Below, piece after piece: positions 41,704-63,219 of a stretch of 64,000 nucleotides of DNA. A model generated the notes under the pieces. The model did not search any database, was not told the DNA's origin, and saw only the letters and a list, made by a program, of their open reading frames with translations. The stretch's first letter is position 1, and every line of letters starts with the position of its first letter. Source of the DNA: a virus (Duplodnaviria > Caudoviricetes); IMG/VR virus record IMGVR_UViG_2896201746_000001, positions 48,121 through 112,120 of that record. One strand, given 5' to 3'. The position numbers and the translations under genes are program-made.

Positions 41704-43521
41704 ATGAAAATGGAAGTTATCCAGTATAGTAAGCGTCAATCTGCGTCGAAAGCAGCAAGCCCGGCAGAAAGTTTGAATGCTGCCCGAGTAATGGCGCGTG
41801 CGCTTTCTGAAGCGACGCCGGAGAGTGATCGGGGATCTCTGGCGCGTTCTTTTTGCCACCGGCTTGTCTCGGCTTGGTGGAGGGCTCTGACGTCTCCTGC
41901 TCATGACCTTGAGCTTCGCCCTTTGTTTGAGCACGAAGAGCTATCGGATCTTCCAGAGCCTGCCGCCGCGTCGGCCGACAGCATCGGCATGGCAGCGGCG
42001 ACTTACGATCCAGAGCGTGCGGCCTACGCTATCGGCCTCATCTACACGGGCATGCTGCCACAAGCCTTTCGGGCTAGTCACGGCATGTACTATACGCCGC
42101 CGGAATTGACAGCCCGTCTGATCGAGCAGGCGACTGTCGCTGGAACGGATTGGGCGCGCTGCAGGGTCTTGGATCCAGCCTGTGGTGGAGGGGCGTTCCT
42201 GGCTCCTGTTGCTCGGAGGATGCTCTCAGAGCTTGAAGGCGTTACCCCGGCCATCGCGATTAAAAATGTGTCAGGCCGGTTGCGTGGCTATGAGATTGAC
42301 CCGTTCGGAGCTTGGCTTTCGCAGGTCACTCTTGACGCCGTGATGCTGCCGATGTGCCGACAGGCAAAGCGGCACATGCCGTTGGTGGTGACAGTTTGCG
42401 ACAGCCTTAAAAGCCGTCCGCCGCGTGAGAGGTTCGACCTAGTTATTGGCAACCCACCCTACGGCAGGGTGAAGCTCTCTCAAGACGAGCGCGCCCGCTT
42501 CCAGCGCAGCCTTTATGGCCATGCCAATCTTTACGGGCTTTTCACCGACATAGCCCTTCAACATGTGCGGGCTGGAGGCGTCATCGCCTATGTCACGCCA
42601 ACGAGTTTTCTGGCTGGAGAATACTTCAAGAATTTGCGTTCTCTGCTCGGCTCCAATGCTCCACCTGTGACGGTGGACTTTATCGCCGTGCGTAAGGGCG
42701 TATTTGAGGACGTTCTTCAAGAAACTCTCCTCGCTACCTATCGCCGGGACGGGAAGGCCACTGGTGCTGAGGTATTCGAGGTTATGCCGAATGGGGAGCA
42801 GGGAATCCGGGCAATCCGCGCCGGCAGCTTCTCCCTACCTGAAGACCAATCTCAGCCCTGGAGGCTGCCGAGAACTCCAGATCAGGCCCCTCTCGTTGAG
42901 CAACTTCAGGTCATGCCACACCGGCTGGCTGACTGGGGCTATGGTGTCAGTACGGGGCCTCTCGTCTGGAATCGACACAAGGAACAACTCTGCAGTGCGA
43001 AGGGCTCCGGACAGCTTCCACTTATCTGGGCCGAAGCAATCACGGCTGATGGGAAGTTCATTTTCCGCGCAGAGAAAAAGAACCATGAGCCTTACTTTAA
43101 GCCGTTGCCGGCAGATGATTGGCTAATTACGCGCACGCCTTGCGTTTTGTTGCAGCGTACGACTGCAAAAGAACAGAGCCGGCGGTTGATTGCCGCCGCT
43201 CTGCCGGCGTCCTTTCTGAAAAAGCACGGCGGAGCCGTGGTGATTGAGAACCACCTCAATATGCTGCGCCCAATGGGTGCAAAACCCAAAGTGTCGGCTG
43301 CTGTTCTAGCTGCTTTCCTGAACAGCGATGCCGCAGACAAGGCTTTCCGCTGCGTCAGCGGCAGCGTCGCAGTATCAGCCTATGAACTCGAGGCTTTGCC
43401 CCTCCCTGATCCGGCATCGCTCAAATCGCTCGCCGAACTAGTGCGCCGTCGGGCCGGAAGAAAGGCCATCGAAGATGAGTGCAATCGACTTTATAACAGA
43501 AAGACGGAAGACAGTGAATGA
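41704..43521 (+). CDS. N6-adenine DNA methyltransferase (gamma class, PstI/BsuBI-type RM)
   Basis: YYTPP, LDPACGGGAFL, IGNPPY, NLYGLF; low-GC island. Confidence 0.92.
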   Translation: MKMEVIQYSKRQSASKAASPAESLNAARVMARALSEATPESDRGSLARSFCHRLVSAWWRALTSPAHDLELRPLFEHEELSDLPEPAAASADSIGMAAATYDPERAAYAIGLIYTGMLPQAFRASHGMYYTPPELTARLIEQATVAGTDWARCRVLDPACGGGAFLAPVARRMLSELEGVTPAIAIKNVSGRLRGYEIDPFGAWLSQVTLDAVMLPMCRQAKRHMPLVVTVCDSLKSRPPRERFDLVIGNPPYGRVKLSQDERARFQRSLYGHANLYGLFTDIALQHVRAGGVIAYVTPTSFLAGEYFKNLRSLLGSNAPPVTVDFIAVRKGVFEDVLQETLLATYRRDGKATGAEVFEVMPNGEQGIRAIRAGSFSLPEDQSQPWRLPRTPDQAPLVEQLQVMPHRLADWGYGVSTGPLVWNRHKEQLCSAKGSGQLPLIWAEAITADGKFIFRAEKKNHEPYFKPLPADDWLITRTPCVLLQRTTAKEQSRRLIAAALPASFLKKHGGAVVIENHLNMLRPMGAKPKVSAAVLAAFLNSDAADKAFRCVSGSVAVSAYELEALPLPDPASLKSLAELVRRRAGRKAIEDECNRLYNRKTEDSE

Positions 43522-44600
43522 GTTTACCTCCTTATGTGTCGCGTAGCATTGTTTCTGAACGCCTCCCGCTGATATTTCCGGAAGGCACTCCAAACAGGAC
43601 CTACTGTATTCGGGAGTTGGCTGCAAGCGCAGTCTTTACTGCTATATACATAGGAGCAGTTGAAGGTGCGGCGCGCTATCTTGGGCCGGTACACGTCTAT
43701 CGGATGACAGAACAGCAGGCAGCGTTGGCCGATTCGGGGAGCCGCGAGGCTTACGCAGCAGGAATCCTGAAGAAGAAATTCCGTGTGCCCGGCGAACGTT
43801 GGTACGCCGATAACACCCGTGAGCCGATCCGTGACGAAACTCTAAGGGATGGATTGGTCGCCGTCGGAGCGGTTCTGCGCCGTGAGGATCTGCCGACCAC
43901 GTCCGGGTTGCCGCGTTATCAACTCAAGGGAAGTTTTGCTGGGCTTTTTGATCCAGCTCTCGAGGGAGAAGGTCTGGAGAAGGCCATTGCTAATTTCCAA
44001 GCAACGCACCTCAGCAAAAGCGCTTTAGCGAGGATATCCATCATTCTTGCTGGAGCTGCTGGGAAAGAGGGTGGAGTTCTTGTCACCTTTCCCAACAAGG
44101 AGACAAGAACGCTGGCTCCGGGGCCAAGCTCAATTATCTCTAAAGACGTTATCGAAGTATTTTCCGCGCACTTCCTTGATAAGCCTGCCGTGCTTTGGTT
44201 GAGCGAAAGCGGAAATAAGGTGGTTGCTAAAGACGATAAACTTGCAGCAGCCATTGGTTTGAAGATAGAGGCTGACAAAAATCTTCCAGATCTGATTCTG
44301 GCGGATCTTGGACCGGCCGACCCGCTCATTGTATTTGTCGAAGTGGTGGCAACAGACGGCGCAATGACCAAAAGGCGAAAGGAAGCTATGCTAGAGTTGA
44401 CGGATGCAGCCGGCTTTCCGCGCACCCAGATCGCCTTTTTAACAGCCTACCAGGACCGGGAGTCCGCTGGATTCAAGAAGACGGTGGCGGGGCTTGCGTG
44501 GGGGTCATTTGCTTGGTTAGTCTCCGAGCCGAAAGGTATTATTCACATGCGTGACGGCGAGACGAGTTTTCGACTCTTGGATGCGGTGATAAAAACATAA
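43518..44600 (+). CDS. BsuBI/PstI-family type II restriction endonuclease
   Basis: NTREPIRDETL, LAPG, LPDLIL..FVEVVATDG.M..RR, LTAY..R..FKK..LAW; overlaps the MTase stop. Confidence 0.85.
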   Translation: MSLPPYVSRSIVSERLPLIFPEGTPNRTYCIRELAASAVFTAIYIGAVEGAARYLGPVHVYRMTEQQAALADSGSREAYAAGILKKKFRVPGERWYADNTREPIRDETLRDGLVAVGAVLRREDLPTTSGLPRYQLKGSFAGLFDPALEGEGLEKAIANFQATHLSKSALARISIILAGAAGKEGGVLVTFPNKETRTLAPGPSSIISKDVIEVFSAHFLDKPAVLWLSESGNKVVAKDDKLAAAIGLKIEADKNLPDLILADLGPADPLIVFVEVVATDGAMTKRRKEAMLELTDAAGFPRTQIAFLTAYQDRESAGFKKTVAGLAWGSFAWLVSEPKGIIHMRDGETSFRLLDAVIKT

Positions 44601-45080
44601 TAGAGATAACCGACTTTGGAGCAGATGCGGTGGTAATGAAATGAGAAAGCTAAAATAAGGCTGGCCAATATCACTATCCTTTATCGAGCTTATAAAATAA
44701 ATCTCCATCATCTTGAGTTGTCAGGAAACCTCCGCTTATGGAATGCTTCCTGGCAACTCAAGATAATATTGAAAATATTCTTTCTGGCTAGTTAGGCTGA
44801 ATGCCGCCCGCAAGCCATCTTTCTGGTTCAGTTCACAGCTAGCGTTGTTTGTGAGTGCCCACTGCGCGTTTCTAGTGTGAGCGTAACTTCGATTCGGTCT
44901 GCGTGGAGAAGGTACAAGTCAAGTCGCTGCGCAAAATCGCCGAAGAGCTGGGCATGTGCCGCAGGCTCCTGGCAAAGCGCATCTGATTTCTTCTCCGTAA
45001 GCGGCGCGCTTTCATTTCCGCGGAAGCGCGCCGCATGCGACTATCATTCATCGCTGATCGACAACGACGAGGAATGAGCG

Positions 45081-45359
45081 ATGAACGTCGAAGCCCTGCA
45101 AGCCGCCCTTCAGCGCGCGATCCGCCTGACTGGCGACGACTTTCACCTCACCCTGACCGGCACCGGCGCATACGTCACCCACTGGACCCGCCCCGCGGCC
45201 GACCTCTTCGAGGACTGCACGGCGGTCGCGAGCGGCAGCATCCCGGAGTGCCTGGCCGCGCTCGATGCCTATGTCGACGTCCTCGTCTCCCAGCGCGCCA
45301 AACCCACGGCTCCCGCCCGCCCGGCCAGCGCCCGGGCGCTCGATGCCGTCTTCGCGTAA
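45081..45359 (+). CDS. Hypothetical protein
   Basis: GAGG RBS after an operator. Confidence 0.6.
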   Translation: MNVEALQAALQRAIRLTGDDFHLTLTGTGAYVTHWTRPAADLFEDCTAVASGSIPECLAALDAYVDVLVSQRAKPTAPARPASARALDAVFA

Positions 45360-45382
45360 TGAGCCAATGGAGCAATAGAGCA

Positions 45383-45613
45383 ATGGCACTCGATCCTGTT
45401 CGCGCAGCCCGCGTCCGTCGCATGCTCCCCGACAAGACAACCTGGCCCGGCACCGTCCTTGCGATGAAGCGCATCGAGGAGGGCTGCATCGTGGAGTTCG
45501 GCGATATCCGCAGTTCCACCGCCCCGTTCTTCATCCACCTCGGTCCCGGCCGCGCGCCGCTGCGCTTCGATACGGTCGACGAGCTGATCGCGGCCGGCTG
45601 GGCGGTGGACTGA
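45383..45613 (+). CDS. Hypothetical protein
   Basis: Start lies within an octamer array; ends ELIAAGWAVD. Confidence 0.55.
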   Translation: MALDPVRAARVRRMLPDKTTWPGTVLAMKRIEEGCIVEFGDIRSSTAPFFIHLGPGRAPLRFDTVDELIAAGWAVD

Positions 45614-45852: not shown

Positions 45853-46358
45853 TCCTCGCCGTCACCGGGCACCGACCCGAGAAGCTGGGCGGCCACTCGC
45901 CGGCGCTACGCCGCAAGCTCGCCGTCTTCGCGTCGTTCCGGCTCCGTCACTTCATCCAGACCCACGGCCGGCCCGACAAGATCATCTCCGGCATGGCGCT
46001 GGGCTGGGATCAGGCAATGGCGATCGCGGCGATCGCCGCCGGCATCCCGCTGGTGGCGGCCGTCCCCTGCGACGCCCAGGATGCGACCTAGCCGGCCGAG
46101 AGCCGCGCCTTCTATCGGATCCTGCTGCACCGCGCCGCCGAGTTTCACGTCATCAGCCCCGGCCCCTACGAGGGCTGGAAGATGAACACCCGCAACGAAT
46201 GGATGGTCGATCACAGCGACCGGCTGCTGGCGCTGTGGGATGGCTCGCAGGGCGGCACTGCGAATTGCGTGCGCTATGCCCGCGGCCTCGGCCGGCCGAT
46301 CGACAACCTCTGGAGCGAATGGGAGAAGTTCACCGATGCTCTTCATGCCGCTGATTGA
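45849..46358 (+). pseudogene. SLOG/YspA (DUF1273-like) protein with internal TAG at 46089-46091
   Basis: AVTGHRP, SGMALGWD, QDAT*PAES, MNTRNEWMVDHSDRLLALWDGSQGGTANCVRYA, all in one frame. Confidence 0.85.
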
Positions 46359-46566
46359 GATTCCGGACCAGCTCGCCGACCGCGTTCAGGCTGCCTTCTA
46401 CCCGGAGAAGCCGCTCAACGAGCGCCAGTTCGCCGTCCGTTCCTACATGGCCGACCGGATCACCGACATGGTCCTGCAGCACATTCCGCTGGTCAGCCGG
46501 GACAGCATGAAATGGGACAACCGCCGCGGCGACGCCGCCGGCGACGGCAAAGTGCTCGCGAGCTGA
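46336..46566 (+). CDS. Hypothetical protein
   Basis: Overlaps the SLOG 3' end; coding-like. Confidence 0.45.
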   Translation: MLFMPLIEIPDQLADRVQAAFYPEKPLNERQFAVRSYMADRITDMVLQHIPLVSRDSMKWDNRRGDAAGDGKVLAS

Positions 46567-46570
46567 GCCG

Positions 46571-46828
46571 ATGGCGGTCGTTCCGCAGGAGGAGCGCCTA
46601 CGGGCGTTCCGGGCGATCGCCCAGGCGCGGCTCCGGCGCTGGCCTGGGCTTGCCGATGCGGCGAGCGACGCCGGCTTCGTCGCCCTCCCGCCGGCCGTGA
46701 AGATGCAGCGCTTGATGGCCGAGGGCGGGCCGTGGTCGAGCTATCGCTTCGGCGATCTGGATCGGCCGGAGCGGGCAATGATCCTCCGGGAGATCGCCGA
46801 GGCGGCCTTCTTCGCCGACGGCTGGTAG
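46571..46828 (+). CDS. Hypothetical protein
   Basis: Operonic ORF. Confidence 0.45.
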   Translation: MAVVPQEERLRAFRAIAQARLRRWPGLADAASDAGFVALPPAVKMQRLMAEGGPWSSYRFGDLDRPERAMILREIAEAAFFADGW

Positions 46829-46937
46829 GCGCTGGCAGATGTGTGCAAGCGAAGCCCTTGACAGGCCGCGGGGATGAAGGCTTCTGCCACGTTCCGTTGG
46901 TGGTAGAGCAACTCGAAATCGCTTGGAGGAGCGAGGT

Positions 46938-47837
46938 ATGCGTGACTTCCTGAAATTCGTGCGGAAGCTGGTGCTGTTCGTTGTCGTGGTCGCCGTCTCG
47001 GCCGTCGTCGGTACGGGGATCGGCGTGAATATGGGCGGCGGGAAGGAGAATCCGGCCGGCTCCGGCCTGGGCGGGCTTTTCGGAATGCTCATCGGTGCCG
47101 CGACGCCGATCGTCATCGTGGTGATCCGGGCAATCCTCCGCCAGCGCCGCAAAGAGCGCGAGATGCGGGAACGGATGGAGTGGGAACGCGACCGCGCCGC
47201 CAGGACCGAAGCTGCCATCGCCCACGTCAACGAGATCGTCCGCACGCATGCCAAGGCGCTCGCCCGGCAGTACCTGACGAAAACCAAGGTGGACGCCTAT
47301 GGGGCGAATGACTTCTCCGCCTGGTTCAAGGAAGAGGATCATTTCGTGGCGCGCGTGCTGTCTCCGCGGCTGTCCGACGAGGAGCTGGAGCTGCTCAACC
47401 GGGCCGACGGGGTGACGCTGAAGGACGTGTTCCTGGAGGCCTTCGACGAAATCGTTCTGGCCGAGGTCGTCGCACTGAAGAATGGCGCGGCCAGCATCGA
47501 GAACATCACCCCGGCCGAGTATGAGCGCCTGTGCGCCCGCCTGCTGGACGAGGCCGGCTGGGATACGAGCGTGACCGGCGCGTCCGGCGACCAGGGTGCC
47601 GACGTCATCGCCACGCTCGGCGGCGAGACGCTGGTCGTCCAGTGCAAGCTCTACAAGCGCCCGGTCGGCAACAAGGCTGTCCAGGAAGCCGCTGCTGCCC
47701 GCACCCACTACCGCGCCACCCATGCCGTCGTCGTCGCCCCGCTCGGCTTCACCCCAGCAGCCCGTGACCTGGCCGCGAGCACCGGCGTCGTGCTGTTGCA
47801 CCATGACGATCTGCCGCAGATCGCCGACCACATTTAG
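46938..47837 (+). CDS. Membrane-anchored Mrr-like restriction endonuclease domain protein
   Basis: Two N-terminal TM helices; EYERLC..GDQGADVI..VQCKLY..VGNKAVQE..FTPAA. Confidence 0.85.
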   Translation: MRDFLKFVRKLVLFVVVVAVSAVVGTGIGVNMGGGKENPAGSGLGGLFGMLIGAATPIVIVVIRAILRQRRKEREMRERMEWERDRAARTEAAIAHVNEIVRTHAKALARQYLTKTKVDAYGANDFSAWFKEEDHFVARVLSPRLSDEELELLNRADGVTLKDVFLEAFDEIVLAEVVALKNGAASIENITPAEYERLCARLLDEAGWDTSVTGASGDQGADVIATLGGETLVVQCKLYKRPVGNKAVQEAAAARTHYRATHAVVVAPLGFTPAARDLAASTGVVLLHHDDLPQIADHI

Positions 47838-48005
47838 AGGAAGAATCAACATATTGTTGCTTTGTCGACTAAATAAGGCATTGATATAATGGGGAAATTA
47901 CAGGGTTGTATCGCTGCCCTTTTGGAGGAGACCCAATTGTTCACTCCCGCCCCCGCTCCTGTTGGGGTAAGTTGATCGGGGTAAACACAACCGAGAGAAC
48001 CGCCC

Positions 48006-48476
48006 GTGGTCCAGCCGCTGCCGCCTCCTTACGAGTTCCGATTCATCGACAAAGATCCGTACCGCATGTGCATGACGGACATCTCGATCGACCTGGAACT
48101 CAACCAGATCATCTCGGCGGCGGCGCTCCTCGATTCCCGGACCAGCGAGCTGCTCCACGGCATTCACGTCTACGACGTGGACCTCGATGACGGCTGGACG
48201 CACTACGACCGGCGAAGGGCAAAGGATGCGTATCATCCCGACGTGAAGCCTGCAGTGCTCGATCTTCTGCACGAGGGCACACGGCTGTTGCTGGAGCGCT
48301 ACAAGCCCCAGCAGGTCGTCTGCCGCACTGAAGAGCCGACGCCCCTCGGCGAATTGCCCGCGCGCTTCCAGGAGACGATCCGCTTCCTGGAGAGCCAGGG
48401 CTATAAGCGGCAATTCCTCTATCAAGACGAAGAGGATCGCTGGCACTGGGAATGCGAACGGCAGGAACTTCCGTAA
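48006..48476 (+). CDS. Hypothetical protein
   Basis: 156-aa ORF with its own AT-rich promoter region. Confidence 0.55.
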   Translation: MVQPLPPPYEFRFIDKDPYRMCMTDISIDLELNQIISAAALLDSRTSELLHGIHVYDVDLDDGWTHYDRRRAKDAYHPDVKPAVLDLLHEGTRLLLERYKPQQVVCRTEEPTPLGELPARFQETIRFLESQGYKRQFLYQDEEDRWHWECERQELP

Positions 48477-48483
48477 TAACACT

Positions 48484-48653
48484 GATTTCCCATAACGCCC
48501 GTATTGCTGATATCAGCGAGGAACTTGGCAATGGCAACCTGATATCAGCGAGGAACTTGGCAAAGGCAACAACCTCACGTGCCCCTGATATCGGCTTGAG
48601 AATCAACCAATTCCCCGATTTCCCATAACGCCCGCATTGCTGATATCGGCGAG
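48484..48653. repeat. Nested direct repeats with GCTGATATCAGC palindromic core
   Basis: 32-bp tandem CTGATATCAGCGAGGAACTTGGCAA(T/A)GGCAAC at 48507/48539; GATTTCCCATAACGCCCG.ATTGCTGATATC.GCGAG at 48484/48617. Confidence 0.85.
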
Positions 48654-48785
48654 AAAATCCGCTAAACCAAGCAAGTCTCGTGAACAACCCTAGCGCTCGC
48701 GTGTTGACCAATGTATCTTATGACGGATCGTCATAGCGATGATACCGCAGCCGTCATGCTGGCTGCTGAACACGAGGAGGCGAAC

Positions 48786-48947
48786 ATGGCCAACGCGCAA
48801 CGTAAGCCCCAGGCGGGCGAGCGCGAAAGCCTGATGGACTACGTGGCTGCACATGATGGCCGTCTGCCGGAACCACTCCGCAGCGCCGTCAACGCATCCT
48901 GCCGCGAAGCCTTCTTCCGCCTGCGTGAGCAACTCCTCGCCAAGTGA
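48786..48947 (+). CDS. Small hypothetical protein
   Basis: GAGGAGG RBS; followed by a terminator. Confidence 0.55.
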   Translation: MANAQRKPQAGERESLMDYVAAHDGRLPEPLRSAVNASCREAFFRLREQLLAK

Positions 48948-48974
48948 TCGTCGCCTTAACCGAAGCCCCATTCG

Positions 48975-49008
48975 AGGCCGGTGAGCGATAACCGCTCCCG
49001 GCCTTTTT
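48975..49008 (+). terminator. Intrinsic terminator
   Basis: AGGCCGG..GAGCG/CGCTC..CCGGCCT plus TTTT. Confidence 0.75.
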
Positions 49009-49774
49009 CATTGCCCACCCGGAAGCCCGCAAACTCCAGGCAAATCAACGCTTCCAGCCCCATAGACGGCCATCTTCCGGTTATCGTGATGGCATTTCCG
49101 ATCACTCCCAGGCAAACAACCTCGCAAACCCATTGTGGATCAATGCGTTAGCCCACGCTCCGCAGAAACAGGCTATCGCCCTAGCCCGATCTGTCGATTC
49201 CGCCTATGGATCACCCCGCAGAAGACAGCCGATTCCGTCTATGTAGACGCCCGGTGAGCGCCAGGAGAGATCACAGCGCATAGCCGCTCGACGACACGCA
49301 GAACGCTTTTGCAGATACGTGCAAGGCGCTCGCAGGATCGCGCTGGATAAGCCCGGAAACGCAAGCGCATCAACGCGAGAGCAGCATGATCGACCGGGCA
49401 TCTCCACGACGCGCCTATGAGCTGCCGGGAATAGCGCGGGGGAGGGCACAGCGCATAGGGAGCGGCTCGTATAGAGGCTCGGGACATAGAAAACACAGGG
49501 TCGTCCAGGAGGCGCGATACGAGGACACGAGGCTACCCGAGAGGTGAGATATGAGGGATGCGACAGGGGGACGGAACTACTCGATAGGCGAGAGGGGTAT
49601 CGCGTCTTTTTGTGAGCCGCGCTCGCCCGGGGGCTGCGGTCCTGTTCATTGAGGCGGCCGGAGCAGGGAATAGCCGGGCGGGTGGAGGCCCTGGGACTTG
49701 CCGCCGGTGGGCCTCAGCCGCTGGGACAGGAGGCTGCTGTTCGGCCTCCTGCCGAGCCGTGGCCAACACCAAGG

Positions 49775-50044
49775 CTATCCACGAGCCGTGCGCCCTGGTT
49801 CATCCTCGTCGACCCGCCAACGCCAATACCGCTCGGGCTTAACCCAAACCACCGTGGTTGGCGTCAGCGCCTGAAAGGCAGCAAGAACCGCCTTGCCGAC
49901 AACCTGATTGCCGTCAGCGTTTTCGGTCAGCAAGTCCTCCCTCTTTGCCTTCACGAGGTAGTCCACCACGTCATCCTGGTAGATGCAGCCTTCGCGCTCG
50001 ATCTGCGCAAGCATCCAAGCCGCGACCGTGGCGGGCGTCATCAT
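49775..50044 (-). CDS. Small conserved hypothetical protein
   Basis: Overlaps the stop of the YodC-like gene; VVWVKPERYWRWR. Confidence 0.6.
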   Translation of the reverse strand: MMTPATVAAWMLAQIEREGCIYQDDVVDYLVKAKREDLLTENADGNQVVGKAVLAAFQALTPTTVVWVKPERYWRWRVDEDEPGRTARG

Positions 50045-50232
50045 TCGGCCTTGGGCGTCGGCTTAATTTCCTCCAACGAGTCGACCGGAAAATGGCCCTG
50101 CTCCAACTTCTTGCCCGCAAACCACTGGGCGTAAAGGAAGCCACCGTCCGTCTTGGTCCTTACTGTCATTTCTGGGCCGCCCGACTTCAGCTTGACAATT
50201 GTGCCGACCGGAAATTGTTTGCTATTGCTCAT
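50041..50232 (-). CDS. YodC/DUF2158-family protein
   Basis: FPVGTIVKLKSGGPEMTV...QWF.G.....F....L. Confidence 0.8.
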   Translation of the reverse strand: MSNSKQFPVGTIVKLKSGGPEMTVRTKTDGGFLYAQWFAGKKLEQGHFPVDSLEEIKPTPKAE

Positions 50233-50289
50233 TTTCCATATTCCTTTTTGAAGGTTGGTGCCTGCACTATACCAAATGTCGCTACAATA

Positions 50290-50840
50290 AGGGGGAGAAG
50301 CGTCTTCCCGACCATCCAGTCGGGAAGAATCGCCGCGTCCAGCTCCGTATTGCGGTTTCAAATGGAAACCGCAATACCCGCCCCGAGCAGGGACTCGCTG
50401 GGCCGCAGGGGAGGTGTAGGCAAAGCTCCGCCTTCCGCTATCTCCCCGTAGGCCCGAACCATCGGCCGGGCCATTGGAAGCGGAACTGGGAGGGGCTGTC
50501 TCAGGCGCGTATCGGTGGGATGCGATTTTCACCGGCTCGCCACACCGTCCCGTCTTCGTTTGGCCGGTCCTCGCAAGGATCGCCGGCAGGGTGGAGCACC
50601 CACGTCCACGGTTCAAAGTCCCACCTACTCCCCAGGCCCAGCCCGGCCGTCGGGAGGCACGGAAGCCCAGACCCTCCGGTCTGGTGAAGATGCCCGCGCC
50701 GGCCCCGCATTTCACCTCCGCGGGGCAAGAGGTAGGCCTGGCTTTTTACCGGAACCCGACACGAGCCTAGGGCAAGACCGGGAACTCGGTCCCCAAGGGC
50801 GCTGCCAGCTTCGCTCCCAGGGGGACGGGTGGGAGCATAT
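50290..50840 (+). ncRNA. Candidate large structured non-coding RNA
   Basis: No credible ORF; TACAAT immediately upstream; many nested stems (see findings). Strand inferred. Confidence 0.5.
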
Positions 50841-50956
50841 GCAGACGGCTCGCCTGATTCAAGTAATCAGTGAAGGTAATGGACAAAGTTGCTTTTCCGT
50901 GCGCTGTCATCGAGCGATGATGAGTCATCGACAACGACAGCCCGGAGCACAGAGCA

Positions 50957-51163
50957 ATGTCCGAGATGACGATCACCAGCCCGACCGGCCGCCGCTTCAG
51001 CGTGACCCGCGAGGGCATCAGCTACCGCTACACGATCACCGAGCCGGACGGCCGCACCGTCCCGCATGAGCTACTCGGCCATGCCGACTGCCGCGAGCTG
51101 ATCTCCTACGACCTGTTCATCGAGCAGCGCAACCTGACCAGCGCCTACGCCTGCGCCGCATGA
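50957..51163 (+). CDS. Small hypothetical protein
   Basis: After an operator; coupled operon. Confidence 0.55.
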   Translation: MSEMTITSPTGRRFSVTREGISYRYTITEPDGRTVPHELLGHADCRELISYDLFIEQRNLTSAYACAA

Positions 51164-51360
51164 GGATCGCCATGACCGCCAAGCCCAACATCGAGGACGT
51201 CTTCGCTGCCTTTGCCGCGTTCCAGGGCGAGAGTGCCCGGATCGTCACCAGCCTGAACGCGATGCACCGCGCCCGGGCCTTCGACGAGGCCCGCGAGACG
51301 CTGAAGGCCCGGCTGACCCAGCTCGGGCTGGCCGAGCATATCGACTGGACGGAGCGCTGA
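51160..51360 (+). CDS. Small hypothetical protein
   Basis: ATGA overlap. Confidence 0.5.
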   Translation: MRIAMTAKPNIEDVFAAFAAFQGESARIVTSLNAMHRARAFDEARETLKARLTQLGLAEHIDWTER

Positions 51361-51473
51361 TCGACACCGGCACGGCGCGCTTTCTCTCGCCGATCGGCAG
51401 CGCGTCGTGCGAGTCTTCATCTGTCAGCAGTGACTGACATCAACACGCAACCTCAACTCTGGAGCACAGCATC

Positions 51474-51848
51474 ATGACCAACGACAAGATCGCCATCGCC
51501 CTTGCCGAGATCGCCGAGATGGGCCGGGCTTGGGAGAACGCCCGCCATGCCAAGCCGAGCCTCGCCAACAAGCTCGCCAGCGTGATCGCCGATCGCTGCC
51601 GCGACGCTTCCGAGCTGGCCAAGCGCCACGGCGTCCAGCTCGCCGCCTACTCCGGCGACTACATCCAGGCGGTAATGGAGCAGATCGGCGCAGGGCGCAA
51701 GCAGGCGCTGGCGGCGGCGAAGACGGGCGGCGGCATCACGATCCGGACGATGACCCGCGTCGTCGACGAGCCGCAGCAGCCCCTCCAGCAACCCGAGCAG
51801 CGCGTCGACATCGACTTCGGCGACGAGTTCGGCATCCTGCCGACCTGA
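51474..51848 (+). CDS. Hypothetical protein
   Basis: GGAG RBS; strong codon bias. Confidence 0.6.
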   Translation: MTNDKIAIALAEIAEMGRAWENARHAKPSLANKLASVIADRCRDASELAKRHGVQLAAYSGDYIQAVMEQIGAGRKQALAAAKTGGGITIRTMTRVVDEPQQPLQQPEQRVDIDFGDEFGILPT

Positions 51849-51927
51849 TTCCGGCCGCGTAGCTGATCCGAGCGGGGCGGCGCTGTGATGGCGTCCGCCC
51901 CGCAACTGTCTCTCACGGAGCGGAGCA

Positions 51928-52109
51928 TGAAGAAGACCATTCCCCTCGACATCCTGATCGACCTCGACCGCGTCAACGACCGTCGCCTCCGGCTCGCCTC
52001 CAAGACCCATCACCGGCCCCGGCAGAACCGTGCCCTAATGCTGCGCCGCCGCCTCGACCAGGCCGTGCGCCGGCTGATCGCCACCATGCCGCTGGAGCTG
52101 GTCCAGTAA
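51928..52109 (+). CDS. Small basic hypothetical protein
   Basis: GGAG RBS, MKKTIPLDIL; start approximate. Confidence 0.45.
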
Positions 52110-52249
52110 TGGATTTGCTGATCGAGCTGTGGGCCGGCGTCTGTGCGCTCGGCATCGTCATGGGCATCGTGCGCGGCCTAACCGTCCCTGATCCCGTCTC
52201 CGTCTTCGTCGGCATCTGTCTGGCGCTGTTCGCTGGCCGGCGCTGACAC

Positions 52250-52370
52250 GGGAATAGCGGCCGGTGTGGTGGGGCTGGGAATCGCTGGCCCGCCTGCCTG
52301 CGCACGGGAATAGCTGGCCCGCCCCCGAGGGCTGGGAATAGACGGGCGGGTGGACGCGCGCGGGAATAGC
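52250..52370 (+). repeat. Five GGGAAT(A/C)G(C/A) repeats at ~28-bp period
   Basis: Copies at 52250, 52277, 52306, 52334 and 52362. Confidence 0.8.
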
Positions 52371-52778
52371 CGGGCCGCGGGAGGCCCTCCCCCTGCCCAC
52401 GGCCCTCCGGCCGCCCCACCCCGGCGCTCCCTCGCCCCGGCGGCCCTGCCCGCCCGGCCTCCGGCCGGCCCGTGGTCCTGTCGGTGGCCCGCCGGCGGGC
52501 CTATGGGGAGGAGGGGGTGTGGCTGCGCCGGCGGCGACGATTCCTCTTGACAGGAGGCTCTTATCTGTGAAGCTGTCGAACTTGGATCCTGAATACTTTC
52601 CTATTGATTTCCTAATGTTTCTTCTTATCGAAAAAACGTGTTTCACTCGTAATTGTCAGTTTCAAAGATAATCTTTAACACTAGGCATCTTTCAAATCAC
52701 TTTTGCGAGATCATAGCATGGCTTTCCTGTCAAGACAAAATTGTCAGTCCCTAGTGAAATTCCTCTGGAATAAATCTC

Positions 52779-56505: not shown

Positions 56506-56745
56506 TCAGGCCGACGCGCTGGAGCGGCGTTCCGGCTCGTGCCTGCCGCTGAGCGACCAGATCAGGATGAAGATCCAGAACAGCGGCATCCAGCCGAAGA
56601 CGATGTTCGCGACGACGATTCCCCAGAAGCTGGAATGGTCGCGCCTGATGGCGATGACGGTCGGCAGGAACATCAGGCCGAGCAGCGCCGTGATGACCAG
56701 TGCGCCGCCGACGAACGGAACAAGCTCTCCCATCGCCGGCCTCAC
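56506..56745 (-). CDS. Superinfection immunity protein (T4 Imm-like)
   Basis: FLPTVIAIRRDH...IVVANIVFGW...WIFILIWSL. Confidence 0.8.
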   Translation of the reverse strand: MRPAMGELVPFVGGALVITALLGLMFLPTVIAIRRDHSSFWGIVVANIVFGWMPLFWIFILIWSLSGRHEPERRSSASA

Positions 56746-57269: not shown

Positions 57270-58040
57270 ATGAACGACGCACACGACATCGACGACGATT
57301 TCGAGGACGCTGACAGCGACGCTGTGAACGACTTGGAGCGCGACGACGACGAGAGCGCTTCGAGCGACAGCGACGACAGCGAGAACGCATCCAAGAGCAT
57401 CCTGAATGCTTCCGCAGCGCCCGGCCGGGCGCGGTCGAAGAAGAAGAAGCTGCTGCGCCGCGGCTCGAAGATCCCGGACCATATCTGGGCCGAGCTGCGC
57501 GAGATGTACGAGAGCGGCAACTACTCCCAGGCCGATCTGGTGCGCTACGCCAAGAGCCGAGGCTTCGGCATCAGCCAGCCCGGCATCTGCAAGCGCATCG
57601 GCAAGGAGGAGTGGGTCAAGGGAGCCAAGGCCGAGGAGATCCGACGCAAGGCCCAGGAGGAGATGGTCTCGGCGATCGGCGAGAATCTCCGCTCGATGCT
57701 CGACCGGCACTCCCAGCAGGCGCTGGCGCTCCAGCACGAGGCCCTCCAGCACTTCAACTTCGCCAACACCCAGCGCCGCTCCGGCAACCCCGACTATCTG
57801 ATCCCGGCCGCGCTGCTGCGCCAGATCGGCGCAACGATCAACGAGGCCCAGCTCATGGAGGCCCGGGCGCGCGGCTTCGACTACCGCGAGGGCAAGCCGT
57901 TCGGCCAGGACGAGGGCGACAAGTCGCAGGACATCGCCGAGCTGCGGGTGTCGGTGATGAGCGACGATGAGGTCGCCGAGCTGAAGTCGCGCAAGGTCGA
58001 TCTCGGCGAAGACGACGACGAGGACGGCGGGGACGAGTGA
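57270..58040 (+). CDS. Putative terminase small subunit
   Basis: HTH-like WAELREMYESG..QADL...ICKRI.KEEW; immediately upstream of TerL. Confidence 0.65.
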   Translation: MNDAHDIDDDFEDADSDAVNDLERDDDESASSDSDDSENASKSILNASAAPGRARSKKKKLLRRGSKIPDHIWAELREMYESGNYSQADLVRYAKSRGFGISQPGICKRIGKEEWVKGAKAEEIRRKAQEEMVSAIGENLRSMLDRHSQQALALQHEALQHFNFANTQRRSGNPDYLIPAALLRQIGATINEAQLMEARARGFDYREGKPFGQDEGDKSQDIAELRVSVMSDDEVAELKSRKVDLGEDDDEDGGDE

Positions 58041-59380
58041 TGCTGTTCCTGCCGGCGCAGACCGCGGCGATCAGGACGAATCTGTTCCCGCACATTCCCA
58101 GGGTGCGGCGGGTGATGGACAGCTCGGGCGGGCTGTCCATCAAGCTGCATCCCGGCCAGAACACCGTCTTCCGTTCGCCCAGGCGCTACCGCACCGTCGT
58201 CGCCGGCCGGCGCTGGGGCAAATCGACCCTATGCGTCGTCGAGCTGATCTGCGCCGCCGCCGCCAAGCCGCGCCAGAACTGCATGTATGTCGCGCCGTCA
58301 CACGCGATGGCCCGGCAGATCGTCTGGGACGCGCTGAAGGAGTCGATCCCCGATTCCTGGCTCGCCAAGAAGCCGAACGAGACGAACCTCGAAATCCGCC
58401 TGAAGAACGGCAGCAAGATCATGCTGCGCGGCTCGGACAACCCCGACAGCCTGCGCGGCATCAAGCTGCATTTCCTGGTGATGGACGAGTTCCAGGACTT
58501 CAAGCCGGACACCTACTCCAAGGTGCTGCGCGCGACCCTGTCGGATACCAACGGCCGGCTGCTGACCATCGGCACGCCGAAGGGCTACGCGAACATCTAC
58601 GAGCTATACCAGAACGGTATAGCGCGCGACGACGGCAAGCCCCGGAAGAAGGGCTGGGCGAGCTGGCAGTTCAAGACGGCCGATTCCCCCTTCGTCCCCG
58701 ACGAAGAGATCGAATCCGCCCGCAACGACCTCGATCCGCACAGCTTCTCACAGGAGTACGAGGCCAACTTCCTCGCCATGGGCGGCCGGGTCTATTACGA
58801 CTTCAGCCGCGACCACAATGTTCGCCCTTGCCCCTACGATCCGTCGCTGCCGACGCTGATCGGCCAGGATTTCAACATCGACCCGATGTCGACCGTGCTG
58901 ATCCAGCTCCACGGCGAGGAGGTCTGGGTGACGGGCGAGCTGAGCCTGCGCTCCAGCTCGACCGAGGACGTCTGCCGGGAACTGGTGCGCGAGTTCGGCT
59001 GGGATTTCCGGGACAAGGCGACGGTCTATCCCGACCCGGCCGGCAATACCCGCCAGCATGCCCGCGGCGAGTCCGACATCCAGATCTTCCGGGAATGGGG
59101 CTTCAACCGCATCCTGTTCCGCCGCAAGCACCCCAGCGTGCGCGACCGCATCGCCGCGGTGAACCGGCTGATCTGCGATGCCTCCGGCCGCCGGCGGCTC
59201 TTCATCGACCCGTCCTGCAAGCACCTGATCGAGAGCCTGGAGAAGCTGCTCTACAAGGAGGGCACGAACGAGCCGGACAAGGATCTGAACATCGAGCACA
59301 TGGGCGATGCCCTGGGCTATCCGTGCGAATACGAGTTCCCGGTCAAGCGGCGCTCGCACGCGATCGGCTATTCCCACTGA
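58037..59380 (+). CDS. Terminase large subunit (start possibly 58115)
   Basis: LHPGQ, AGRRWGKS, LRG..LVMDEFQD, IGTPKG, GQDFNIDP, YPDPAG, HMGDALGY. Confidence 0.93.
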   Translation: MMLFLPAQTAAIRTNLFPHIPRVRRVMDSSGGLSIKLHPGQNTVFRSPRRYRTVVAGRRWGKSTLCVVELICAAAAKPRQNCMYVAPSHAMARQIVWDALKESIPDSWLAKKPNETNLEIRLKNGSKIMLRGSDNPDSLRGIKLHFLVMDEFQDFKPDTYSKVLRATLSDTNGRLLTIGTPKGYANIYELYQNGIARDDGKPRKKGWASWQFKTADSPFVPDEEIESARNDLDPHSFSQEYEANFLAMGGRVYYDFSRDHNVRPCPYDPSLPTLIGQDFNIDPMSTVLIQLHGEEVWVTGELSLRSSSTEDVCRELVREFGWDFRDKATVYPDPAGNTRQHARGESDIQIFREWGFNRILFRRKHPSVRDRIAAVNRLICDASGRRRLFIDPSCKHLIESLEKLLYKEGTNEPDKDLNIEHMGDALGYPCEYEFPVKRRSHAIGYSH

Positions 59381-59439: not shown

Positions 59440-61122
59440 ATGCCCAGCCCTACCCCGAATCTGAATCCCAACCAGCCGCAGGTGATCTCCACCTCCCTCG
59501 CCGCGGCGACAGCCGGCTATTCCGACAAGGATGTCGAGACGCTGATCCAGCGCCGCCATCCGGATTTCCAGAAGTGGATCGAGCACTGGAAGTTCTGCCG
59601 GCTCGCCTATGAGGGCGGCCGGGAGTGGTTCAATCAGAAGAACCTGTTCAAGTTCTACCGCGAAGGCCTGCGGGAATACGAGGAGCGGGTCAAGCGCTCC
59701 TACCGCGCCAACCACACCAAGCGCGTCGTCGAAGCCGTCAACCAGTTCCTGTTCAAGTCCAGGCCGCAGCGCGCCGCCGACGCGCCGGCGATCCTGCGCG
59801 ACTTCTGGGGCCGGGCGACGCTGTCGGGCATGACGATGGACAGCTTCGCCAAGCAGATCGACATCTGGCTGTCGGTCTTCGGCCTGGTCTACGCGGTCGT
59901 CGACCGGCCCGGCGATGCGATGGTCGCGGCCGACGGCAAGCTGGTGGCCGGCGATGCCGAGGCCCTGCCCTACAGCTACCTCGTCTTCCCGACCCATGTG
60001 CTCGATCTCGCCTTCGACGACGCCGGGCATCTGCGTTGGATTCTTGTCGCGGAGGACTATCGCGACGACGCCGACCCCCTGAAGAGCAGCGGCAAGCCGC
60101 TGGTGCGCTACCGGCTGTGGACGCGCAGCGAGTGGATCCTGTTCGGGCCGGAAGACGCCGATCACCCCGAGAAGATCACCCGGCTGGACAGCGGCGAGCA
60201 CGGCCTGGGCGTCGTGCCGGTCGTGCCGATCACCGAGACAGAGGGGGCGCGCTATTCGGCCCCGTCCCTGATCGGCGACGTCGCCTATCTCGACCGCACC
60301 GTGACCAATTACGCCTGCCTGCTCGACGAGATCATCTACGAGCAGACCTTCAGCCAGCTCGTCATGCCGGCCGAGGGCATCCTGCCCGGCACCGATCCGG
60401 CCAACCAGATCATCGCCGCGGCCAAGGAGCGCATCTTCCTGTTCTCCGGCGGCGACGGCAACAACCGGCCGAGCTACATTAGCCCGGACGCCAGCCAGGC
60501 CCAGCTCATCATCGACGCGATCGACCGGCTGACCCGCACGATCTACGCTGCGACCGGCACCGACGGCGGCGAGGCGAACAGCCAGGCCATGTCGAAGGGC
60601 CGGGAATACGCCTCCGGCGTCGTGCGCTCCTACGATCACGCCGGCATCGAGAACATCCTGCGCGCCAAGGCCGCGGCGCTGGAGCGCGCCGAGGATCAGA
60701 TCATGGCGCTGGTGCTGCTGTGGATGGGCCAGGACAACGTCGAGATCGACCCGAGCTGGGTGCGCTACCCGACGCAGTTCGACATTCGCGGCCTGTCGCA
60801 GGATCTCGAAGTGGCGAAGGCGCTGTCCGACCTGTCCGCGCCGGTCGCCGTGATGCGCGAGCAGATGAAGGGCATGACCGAAAAGCTGTTCCCGCGCATG
60901 AGTCCGGAGGAGCTTCAGCGCATCAACAAAGCGATCGGCAGTTGGGAGCCGGCCTATCTCGCCGAGGATGAGCTGGTCAAGGCCGAGACGGACGAGATCG
61001 AGGCCAAGATCGCCGTCACCGAGGCCGCCAGCAAGCGCGAGGACGCGCTCGCCGAGCATCAGATCGCCATGGGCGAGCGTGCCGCATCCCAGCCCCAGGA
61101 CCAGGCCAGGATTGCCGCCTGA
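59440..61122 (+). CDS. Portal protein
   Basis: Position after TerL; AYEGG, EYEERVKRS..NH, HGLGVVPVV, FSQL, ASGV. Confidence 0.8.
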   Translation: MPSPTPNLNPNQPQVISTSLAAATAGYSDKDVETLIQRRHPDFQKWIEHWKFCRLAYEGGREWFNQKNLFKFYREGLREYEERVKRSYRANHTKRVVEAVNQFLFKSRPQRAADAPAILRDFWGRATLSGMTMDSFAKQIDIWLSVFGLVYAVVDRPGDAMVAADGKLVAGDAEALPYSYLVFPTHVLDLAFDDAGHLRWILVAEDYRDDADPLKSSGKPLVRYRLWTRSEWILFGPEDADHPEKITRLDSGEHGLGVVPVVPITETEGARYSAPSLIGDVAYLDRTVTNYACLLDEIIYEQTFSQLVMPAEGILPGTDPANQIIAAAKERIFLFSGGDGNNRPSYISPDASQAQLIIDAIDRLTRTIYAATGTDGGEANSQAMSKGREYASGVVRSYDHAGIENILRAKAAALERAEDQIMALVLLWMGQDNVEIDPSWVRYPTQFDIRGLSQDLEVAKALSDLSAPVAVMREQMKGMTEKLFPRMSPEELQRINKAIGSWEPAYLAEDELVKAETDEIEAKIAVTEAASKREDALAEHQIAMGERAASQPQDQARIAA

Positions 61123-62277: not shown

Positions 62278-63219
62278 ATGCCTTTGATGATCGAAGACGC
62301 CCAGCACCTCTCCAACAACGACCTGGTCCGCGGCGTCGTCGAAGAGATCATCGACTTCGACAACCTGTTCTCGGTCCTGCCCTTCGTGAAGACCGAGGGC
62401 AAGTCCTACGTCTACAACCGCGAGGGCACTCTGGCGACCGCGACCTGGATCGTGCCGAACGCCAGCGTGATCCCCGAGGACGCGACGACCTTCCAGGAAG
62501 TCACCGTCACGCTGCGGATCCTGATCGGCGACGTGGACGTCGACAACTTCCTGAACTCGACGATGTCGGACACCAACAGCCAGTTGGCCGTCCAGATCGC
62601 CCACAAGGCCAAGGCCATCGCCCGCAAGTTCTCCGACGCGCTCATCAACGGTGACGCCTCGAAGAGCTACAACCTGTCGGACTTCGGCGGCACCGGCACC
62701 GCGACCAACGTCGAGTTCGACGGCCTGGATCGCCTGACCGTCCCGGCGATGACCCTGTCGGCCGGCACCAACGGCGGCGCGCTGACCTTCGAGCTGCTCG
62801 ACCAGCTCATCGACAAGGTGAAGCTGGGTCCGGACGCCTTCGTGTTCGGCCGTCGCACCATCCGCGACTACAAGCGCCTGCTGCGCTCCGTGTCGCGCGT
62901 GTCGCCGGAGTACATCCGCCTGTCGAACGGCAAGGACGTGCTGGGCTATGCCGGCGTGCCGATCCTGCTGAACGACTTCGTGCGTGAAGACCTGACCGTC
63001 GGCACCTCGGTCGACTGCTCGACCGTCTTCGCCGCGCGCATGAACGAGGTCGACGGCGTGCATGGCCTGTACGGCGGCGACAACATGGGCTTCTCGATCC
63101 AGAACATCGGGCAGCTCCAGACCAAGGACGCCCAGCGCACCCGCGTCCGCTGGTACTGCGCGGTCGCCCTGAAGGGCACCAAGTCGCTCGGTAAGATCGT
63201 CGGCATCCGCTCGATCTGA
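62278..63219 (+). CDS. Major capsid protein (HK97 fold)
   Basis: LPFVKTEGKSYVYNRE, GDVDVDNF, LINGD, EFDGL, RTRVRWYCAVAL. Confidence 0.85.
   Translation: MPLMIEDAQHLSNNDLVRGVVEEIIDFDNLFSVLPFVKTEGKSYVYNREGTLATATWIVPNASVIPEDATTFQEVTVTLRILIGDVDVDNFLNSTMSDTNSQLAVQIAHKAKAIARKFSDALINGDASKSYNLSDFGGTGTATNVEFDGLDRLTVPAMTLSAGTNGGALTFELLDQLIDKVKLGPDAFVFGRRTIRDYKRLLRSVSRVSPEYIRLSNGKDVLGYAGVPILLNDFVREDLTVGTSVDCSTVFAARMNEVDGVHGLYGGDNMGFSIQNIGQLQTKDAQRTRVRWYCAVALKGTKSLGKIVGIRSI

Follow-up and report, generated by a model that had tools for sequence, protein, structure and literature searches.

An ORF-free tract of about 0.6 kb, which starts near position 50290 of the window (the whole 64,000-nt stretch of viral DNA analyzed here), is a real, constrained and probably transcribed non-coding element of a phage-plasmid. 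The absence of protein coding, the low sequence variation and the apparent transcription together suggest that the tract is probably a new regulatory RNA. It is matched by contigs of RNA-type libraries; its strand, ends and function are inferred. The reading favored here, with about even confidence, is that the tract serves the five small genes (p68 to p45) that follow it as the leader or regulatory RNA of their operon, and that processing near 50917 may yield a stable RNA. This reading is favored because no terminator is found up to the ribosome-binding site of p68.

The phage-plasmid and the surroundings of the tract

The window is the second half (positions 48121-112120) of a virus record that spans 112,120 bp and carries direct terminal repeats. 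It codes for siphophage-type head and packaging proteins, scaffold included (Table 1), and for a large block of replication and nucleotide-metabolism proteins. The first half of the genome encodes a Rep3-type initiator, ParA and a ParB-N protein. The presence of virion genes together with this plasmid set identifies the element as a phage-plasmid. The Rep3-type initiator (genome positions 44699-45610) and ParA (46292-46924) are on the minus strand and adjoin non-coding gaps of 940 and 681 nt; this region is likely the plasmid origin and centromere of the element.

The lineage is high-GC, SSU5-type and rare. The portal proteins of SSU5-like enterobacterial phage-plasmids, Pseudomonas phage nickie and Rhizobium phage RHEph10 share ~37-42% identity with the one encoded here. 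The best 80 of 259 terminase relatives in IMG/VR are all at most 56% identical, the 19 loci found in GTDB contigs are at most 55% identical, and of the 1041 PLSDB records with a terminase match one falls in the 60-80% band and the others below 60%. Of 11 neighboring ORFs, 7 occur as exact sequences in a collection of ~15 billion proteins, where their 90%-identity clusters have 1-4 members. SSU5-type phage-plasmids are frequent carriers of accessory genes, and the tract sits in the accessory part of the genome with low-GC islands nearby. In the literature on SSU5 and other phage-plasmids, the titles, abstracts and term counts of the matches listed contain no functional non-coding RNA.

The proteins of the downstream operon belong to no Pfam or PHROG family. 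The four scored ORFs (68, 66, 124 and 74 aa) have GC3 values of 0.89-0.93. Five operon-side ORFs, p66 and p74 not among them, were looked up in the protein collection, and four are present, in clusters of 3-4 members; p124 and p68 have no usable relative in the ESM Atlas.

Table 1. Positions of features in the window
Feature	Position	Strand	Remarks
Left boundary repeat	49655-49688	+	holds GGGAATAGC at 49666
DUF6953 gene	49775-50044	-	Pfam E 9e-26
DUF2158 gene	50041-50232	-	Pfam E 2e-14
TATAGT box	50267-72		opposite orientation, towards DUF2158
TACAAT	50283-50288	+	candidate -10 box for a plus-strand RNA; putative role
Hairpin 1	50303-50328	+	perfect 10-bp stem, 6-nt loop; pair probability >0.9
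Hairpin 2	50347-50377	+	perfect 13-bp stem, 5-nt loop
Right boundary repeat	50379-50414	+	degenerate GGGAATAGC-type unit; 75% over 36 nt to 49655-88
Conserved non-coding block	50389-50956	+	up to the p68 start codon; covered by estuary, isolate and wastewater contigs
Nearly invariant core	50471-50829	+	isolate and rice-paddy contigs
7-bp hairpin	50702-50726	+	11-nt loop with CACCUCC; pair probability >0.9
Hairpin upstream of p68 ribosome-binding site	50904-50940	+	window 50870-50989: z -2.84 (+), -4.33 (-)
Operon of five small genes (68, 66, 124, 74, 45 aa)	50957-52246	+	no Pfam or PHROG family
Five tandem GGGAATAGC-type units, period ~28 nt	52250-52375	+	where homology and the conserved module end
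Large terminase	58037-59380
Portal	59440-61122
Major head protein	62278-63219

Absence of protein coding

The tract had been called ORF-free in an earlier sequence-only reading, and the analysis bears out that it is non-coding: codon periodicity is absent, stop codons occur at chance level and no ORF is annotated. The GC content by codon phase is flat over ~50140-50860, whereas the genes on either side show the pattern of the genome, with GC3 of ~0.9. Both the stop-codon counts and the longest open frame equal those of dinucleotide shuffles. Three ORFs within the tract match no Pfam or PHROG family, the protein collection contains no homologue of the frame that most resembles coding sequence, and nine candidate ORFs (eight from the tract and one at 48711-48947) are absent as exact sequences from the ~15-billion protein collection. 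The differences between relatives in 50389-50956 are distributed over the three phases as 4/3/5, without a 3-base rhythm. Within genes, 14 of the 19 listed differences are at third codon positions. A second long stretch, 48950-49700, likewise has no codon periodicity.

Relatives and constraint on the core

Parts of the region were found in 21 public sequencing runs from 12 studies by means of a word index over 48000-52500. The contigs of four of these runs were placed on the window at an identity of at least 85%: an estuary metagenome (X2), a wastewater metagenome (X8), an isolate (X6) and a rice-paddy community RNA-seq library (X20).

The isolate yielded a 618-nt contig over 50327-50917, which differs from the window by 27 substitutions and 4 indels that are spread very unevenly. 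Seventeen of the substitutions are listed by position: eight at 50360-50470, one at 50556, one at 50714 and seven at 50830-50887. The remaining ten lie within ~30 nt of the contig ends, as read from the listing rule. The listed positions and the end location of the other ten thus define a core, 50471-50829, with 2 differences in 359 nt. The flanks in the same contig have 25 differences in 232 nt (comparison with the core, Fisher p 5e-9), and isolate contigs over the neighboring genes have 78 differences in 1292 nt (Fisher p 1e-6). A 204-nt contig of the rice-paddy library is identical to the window over 50557-50757 (201 nt). The core figure is based on these isolate and rice-paddy contigs, and the differences listed, which are those with the best support, exclude those private to the estuary and wastewater contigs.

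The difference in the core is therefore 0.6%, against 6% in neighboring genes and ~11% in a neutral spacer. This spacer, the non-coding region 48677-49483, differs in the wastewater relative at 88 of 807 positions and by 9 gaps, and contains replaced blocks in both metagenome relatives. The stretch 48950-49700 is fast-evolving in relatives, with ~11-14% difference and replaced blocks. The pattern supports strong constraint on the tract. Recent exchange, instead of selection, could also account for the near-identity of the core.

Database searches gave no usable homologous DNA of the tract. A blastn search with 50233-50956 gave no match among PLSDB plasmids and GenBank phages, and a 30-base pattern from the core gave none in IMG/VR, where the DUF6953 query returned four loci and the p124 query returned zero. 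In JGI metagenomes the p68 query found one locus, which begins merely 30 nt upstream of the gene. Relatives of p68 and p124 are carried by a Logan contig of 22,362 nt and an ENA contig of 3,460 nt. Comparison of the tract by blastn and nhmmer with 113 loci of relatives gave no match beyond the DUF6953 gene. A DNA search of four samples of 401 genomes each (one class and three orders) produced no match to the non-coding part, and two short matches of 31-52 nt in coding sequence, which were taken as chance; eight single genomes or records gave no real match. In three high-GC relatives (L096, L099 and L101) the region upstream of the terminase is free of long non-coding gaps; within their loci the largest gaps measure 403-436 nt.

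An exchanged segment upstream of the core

The estuary contig is 6,095 nt long, and the wastewater contigs are 2,751 and 667 nt long. The wastewater relative matches the window from 48001 and the estuary relative from 48975, both to ~49707, with left joints at 49685/49686. The match is regained at 50389 in the former and at 50419 in the latter, and continues to ~52350-52430. Between the joints, the window contains 681-765 nt with the DUF6953 and DUF2158 genes and hairpins 1 and 2; the estuary and wastewater relatives instead carry 957 and 1,506 nt of sequence that does not match the window. The wastewater stretch includes extra copies of the 49666-49707 unit. As the intervening segment differs in both relatives, it represents exchangeable cargo. 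The DUF6953/DUF2158 pair is unmatched at an identity of at least 85% by the estuary, isolate and wastewater contigs. The two genes are also adjacent in three unrelated viral contigs (L003-L005), which suggests that the pair moves as a unit; hairpins comparable to those of the tract were not found upstream of DUF2158 in these three contigs.

Repeats mark the edges of the exchanged segment (Table 1). The degenerate GGGAATAGC-type copy at 50385-50403 coincides with the resumption of homology to relatives, and a further copy is present at 49427. The GGGAATAGC 9-mer occurs in 8 copies in the genome (~0.8 expected). A 19-base version of the motif has 6 copies with at most 3 mismatches (0.27 expected), a count that was reached in none of 100 shuffles. 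The tandem array downstream of the operon was not reported by Tandem Repeats Finder. Motifs of this type may delimit exchangeable modules, as sites of protein binding or of recombination. When the two non-coding regions are compared with each other, their similarity is confined to the 36-nt boundary repeat.

Hairpin 2 is retained in the isolate, where all 26 stem bases are unchanged; in that organism the hairpin thus travels with the candidate RNA. Its loop is changed at 50360, 50362 and 50364 and equals the reverse complement of the window loop, which may be read as a single inversion of the palindrome center and not as three point changes. The nine letters that precede 50327 in the isolate contig contain GGGGAG. 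This could be the counterpart of 50319-26 or of 50291-98, and in either case pairing with CUCCCC at 50442-47 would be conceivable.

Evidence for transcription

That the tract is an RNA, as had been proposed from the letters, gains support from contigs of RNA-type libraries, which make a plus-strand transcript of ~0.6 kb probable, although contig data prove neither strand, ends nor expression level. The rice-paddy library is declared as RNA-seq. Its other pieces across the 4.5 kb measure 33-189 nt, differ from the window by 3-13 letters each (~4-15%), and include more diverged copies of DUF6953 and DUF2158; these diverged pieces are taken to derive from other organisms. The isolate assembly, whose library type is unrecorded, looks like a transcriptome: it consists of 26,017 contigs, of which the longest is 2,414 nt, and the depth in this region is 9-49 per contig.

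Past 50917, the isolate contig continues with two letters and then a run of 16 A, which suggests, and would fit, a tailed plus-strand RNA. A loose end is found before 50961 in the same assembly. The breaking of the isolate contigs at 50917-50998 may be explained by a second copy of p68 with a different upstream sequence.

TACAAT was located at the start of the ORF-free tract, as the sequence-only reading had reported. A scan for sigma-70-like promoters over 48300-51500 found none on either strand; the promoter type of the host may differ. No intrinsic terminator was found between the tract and p68.

Stems and folding

The same reading had listed a series of stems and had described the tract as highly structured. 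Every one of these stems is present at the position claimed for it, and the perfect ones were found again; of the listed stems, only hairpins 1 and 2 are far beyond chance. Perfect stems of at least 6 bp occur in 8 registers in 50290-50388, compared with 0.23 in shuffles, and none of 300 shuffles reaches 8. Windows of 120 nt over the two hairpins have folding z-scores of -4.9 to -5.8. In 50389-50956 there are 6 distinct perfect hairpins of at least 6 bp, and the excess is modest: 8 registers compared with 2.08 in shuffles (fraction 0.010). The second long non-coding stretch, 48950-49700, has no perfect hairpins, compared with 2.28 in shuffles, and a z-score of +0.63.

The folding energy of the full span 50290-50840 is better than that of shuffles (z -2.55 on the plus strand and -2.86 on the minus strand), but this is due to hairpins 1 and 2. 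Once they are left out, the advantage is lost: 50389-50956 folds with a z-score of -0.51 on the plus strand, where 26 of 100 shuffles fold equally well, and of -1.20 on the minus strand, and 16 sliding windows starting at 50360-50810 have z-scores between +0.38 and -1.68. As the minus strand of the full span folds equally well, there is no thermodynamic preference for the plus strand. The argument that G-U pairs favor the plus strand holds for the hairpin at 50513-34, which needs such pairs on that strand, but finds no echo in the energies.

The minimum free energy (MFE) fold is itself unstable, with an ensemble frequency of 0 and a centroid that is unlike it. Both strands of a proposed long-range closing helix are present on the plus strand. 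However, the 5' strand belongs to the segment for which the two metagenome relatives carry other sequence, and the 3' strand (50442-47) pairs in the MFE fold with the nearer GGGGAG at 50408-13. As hairpins 1 and 2 are swapped with that segment, the closing helix would straddle a variable junction. The CACCUCC loop of the hairpin at 50702-26 is complementary to GGAGGUG at 50409-15, and the A>G change at 50714 of the isolate, which is in this 11-nt loop, would keep a wobble pair with U50414. Such a long-range contact, suggested by complementarity, would be a lead rather than a finding. Farther downstream, the p68 ribosome-binding site (GGAG at 50943-46) is just 3' of the hairpin at 50904-50940.

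Ten of the 17 listed isolate substitutions are at positions predicted to be unpaired, against 34% expected (p 0.03), where three of the ten represent one loop inversion. The other seven are in predicted pairs and all of them break the pair, including one in the high-confidence stem C50453-G50470. The description "highly structured" therefore does not hold beyond the first 100 nt, where the folding energy is like that of shuffles and none of the seven paired-site substitutions keeps its pair. The positive evidence for structure is limited to the hairpin count, and there is no evidence yet for an elaborate fold.

Comparison with known phage RNAs

The sequence-only reading had suggested ROOL, GOLLD or a similar class. 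The tract resembles these RNAs in being several hundred nucleotides long, non-coding, located in a phage or prophage and of unknown function. According to the available text of PMC5737381, ROOL has a mean length of 581 nt and few highly conserved nucleotides, and ROOL and GOLLD are often near tRNA genes and in prophages. RNAs of this type are the subject of a cryo-EM study (PMC12286853). The tract has the phage context but not the vicinity of tRNA genes, as there are no tRNA or tmRNA genes in the window or in the remaining 48 kb of the genome. Unlike ROOL, it is almost invariant among close relatives. It also differs from both RNAs in having no demonstrated multistem junctions or pseudoknots, and in belonging to a high-GC host lineage and a phage-plasmid.

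Membership in either family is not supported, given the lack of an Rfam match and of tRNA genes in the 112-kb genome. In the window, all Rfam families stay below their gathering scores. At E values of up to 10, four weak matches are found in 50000-51100, the best with 18.8 bits against a threshold of 41.2. The ROOL model (RF03087; 574 positions, gathering score 99.1 bits) has no match in the window, is not among these four, and has no match at E values of up to 1 in the whole genome; 14 control genomes are likewise unmatched, so that this last result is weak by itself. The GOLLD model (RF02032; 416 positions, gathering score 150 bits) also has no match in the window.

P1-type phage-plasmids contain the C4 antisense RNA (RF01695) in the leader of the icd-ant operon, upstream of small ORFs, and express it in the plasmid state. 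The tract is similar to C4 in being a candidate non-coding RNA in the probable leader of an operon of small ORFs in a phage-plasmid. The C4 model has 87 positions, compared with ~600 nt for the tract, and the proteins downstream of the tract, unlike those of the C4 system, have no detectable relatives. C4 has no match in the window, nor at E values of up to 10 in 50000-51100. An Rfam search of the loci of seven relatives found C4 in one, L010 (873-959, 68.8 bits). L010 is an enterobacterial SSU5-like viral contig in which C4 is ~9 kb upstream of the terminase, a position comparable to that of the tract.

Proposed mechanism and alternative explanations

If it is the leader or a regulatory RNA for p68-p45, the tract would act as follows. 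A plus-strand transcript of ~0.6 kb would begin near 50290. Its 5' hairpin domain, which would vary between relatives and consists here of two perfect hairpins, would protect the RNA and perhaps set its specificity. The nearly invariant ~360-nt core would follow, and the 3' end would reach the p68 ribosome-binding site of the five-gene operon with no terminator between. A stable processed RNA might be present in the plasmid state of the element.

The tract might instead be an element that works at the DNA level via transcription, such as an RNA-primed or R-loop origin of the ColE1 RNA II or mycobacteriophage type, and the 5' hairpins would then be the target of an antisense RNA controlling copy number and incompatibility. 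In ColE1-type origins, an antisense RNA I gene lies across from the 5' hairpins of the primer RNA and is transcribed from a promoter of its own. The likeness to ColE1 RNA II and to the RNA-based prophage origins of cluster A mycobacteriophages consists of a non-coding transcript (0.4-0.55 kb) that is expressed from a prophage or plasmid, has stem-loops in its 5' domain and has a 3' end not defined by a terminator. The size of the tract fits, as TACAAT and the apparent 3' end at 50917, where there is no terminator, are ~0.55-0.63 kb apart, and so do the two perfect 5' hairpins with their loops of 5-6 nt. A swapped 5' domain on a nearly invariant body is what would be expected of a specificity determinant. 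Mycobacteriophages provide a precedent: the available text of PMC7157519 describes non-coding regions of 400-497 nt that are expressed from the prophage and required for extrachromosomal maintenance, and an RNA-based origin in which the non-coding RNA is directly beside parABS in a genome without repA. In the present genome, however, a Rep3-type initiator and ParA are already available ~51 kb from the tract, and partition genes are not its neighbors. No antisense promoter came out of the scan of both strands, with the caveat on host promoter type given above, and there is no RNAI-type match in Rfam. The region is GC-rich and its GC skew is slightly negative. An origin is considered unlikely. 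A large ornate RNA of the ROOL/GOLLD kind, or of a new class of that sort, whose role would be biochemical and not regulatory, is distinctly unlikely. Its length would be close to the ROOL average of 581 nt (PMC5737381), it would be located in a phage, 360 nt are almost wholly invariant, which exceeds what is usual for simple regulatory leaders, and there is the modest excess of hairpins. These points have to be set against the lack of a match to ROOL, GOLLD or any other of the 4227 Rfam families, the absence of tRNA genes from the genome, a core that folds no better than shuffles, listed substitutions among which compensatory changes are not seen, and a rare lineage with protein clusters of 3-4 members.

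At the other extreme, the tract could be a non-functional spacer beside an inserted gene pair, its hairpins being chance products or leftovers of insertion and its low divergence the result of recent exchange. The location in a hotspot of swapped cargo with repeated boundary motifs and the ordinary folding energy of the core would agree with this. It is nevertheless very unlikely, because the nearby non-coding region 48677-49483 has diverged by ~11% with block replacements and the core has not, because an isolate and a rice-paddy RNA library both preserve the core, which estuary and wastewater contigs cover as well, and because the core is present in RNA libraries at all. Finally, several open frames run across the core, among them one of 55 codons from the ATG at 50520, and could represent unrecognized small protein genes. 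The frames and stops are like those of shuffles, however, the GC content is flat by phase where genes have a GC3 of ~0.9, the substitutions lack a 3-base rhythm, and the candidate products have no Pfam or PHROG match (three ORFs) and are absent from the protein collection, so that this explanation is scarcely credible.

A more far-reaching proposal, possible but doubtful, is that the tract represents a new class of large phage-plasmid RNA, in which specificity would be set by an exchangeable hairpin domain at the 5' end, joined to a core of ~360 nt that is almost intolerant of change. Such an RNA might be an ornate machine, or it might be an RNA-primed second origin or incompatibility determinant. 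If true, either role would be new for proteobacterial SSU5-type elements, and if the fold were elaborate, large structured RNAs would be extended to high-GC proteobacterial phages. More generally, a transcribed element that is more conserved than the surrounding genes and is positioned at a cargo-exchange hotspot is a candidate control point of the plasmid state. Immunity, replication or the activity of the accessory operon could be under such control.

Other features of the genome

An iteron-like block is found at 48484-48671, directly 3' of a gene for a 156-aa protein. The palindrome GCTGATATCAGC, or a form that differs from it by one base, occurs there four times, nested in direct repeats of 32-40 nt. 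The 200-nt block is swapped for 75 other letters in the wastewater relative, and the copy number is thus variable. The block probably provides a cluster of sites to which a regulator or a partition protein binds.

A defense and exclusion set is encoded at 41704-44600, 46923-47837 and 56506-56745. It comprises an Eco57I/N6-type methylase and a BsuBI/PstI-type endonuclease in a lower-GC island, an Mrr-type nuclease and a superinfection-immunity protein. At 2372-4579, an intein splits an AAA+ ATPase (PHROG "porphyrin biosynthesis", CobS-like), and Hint and LAGLIDADG homing-endonuclease domains are situated between the parts of the ATPase.
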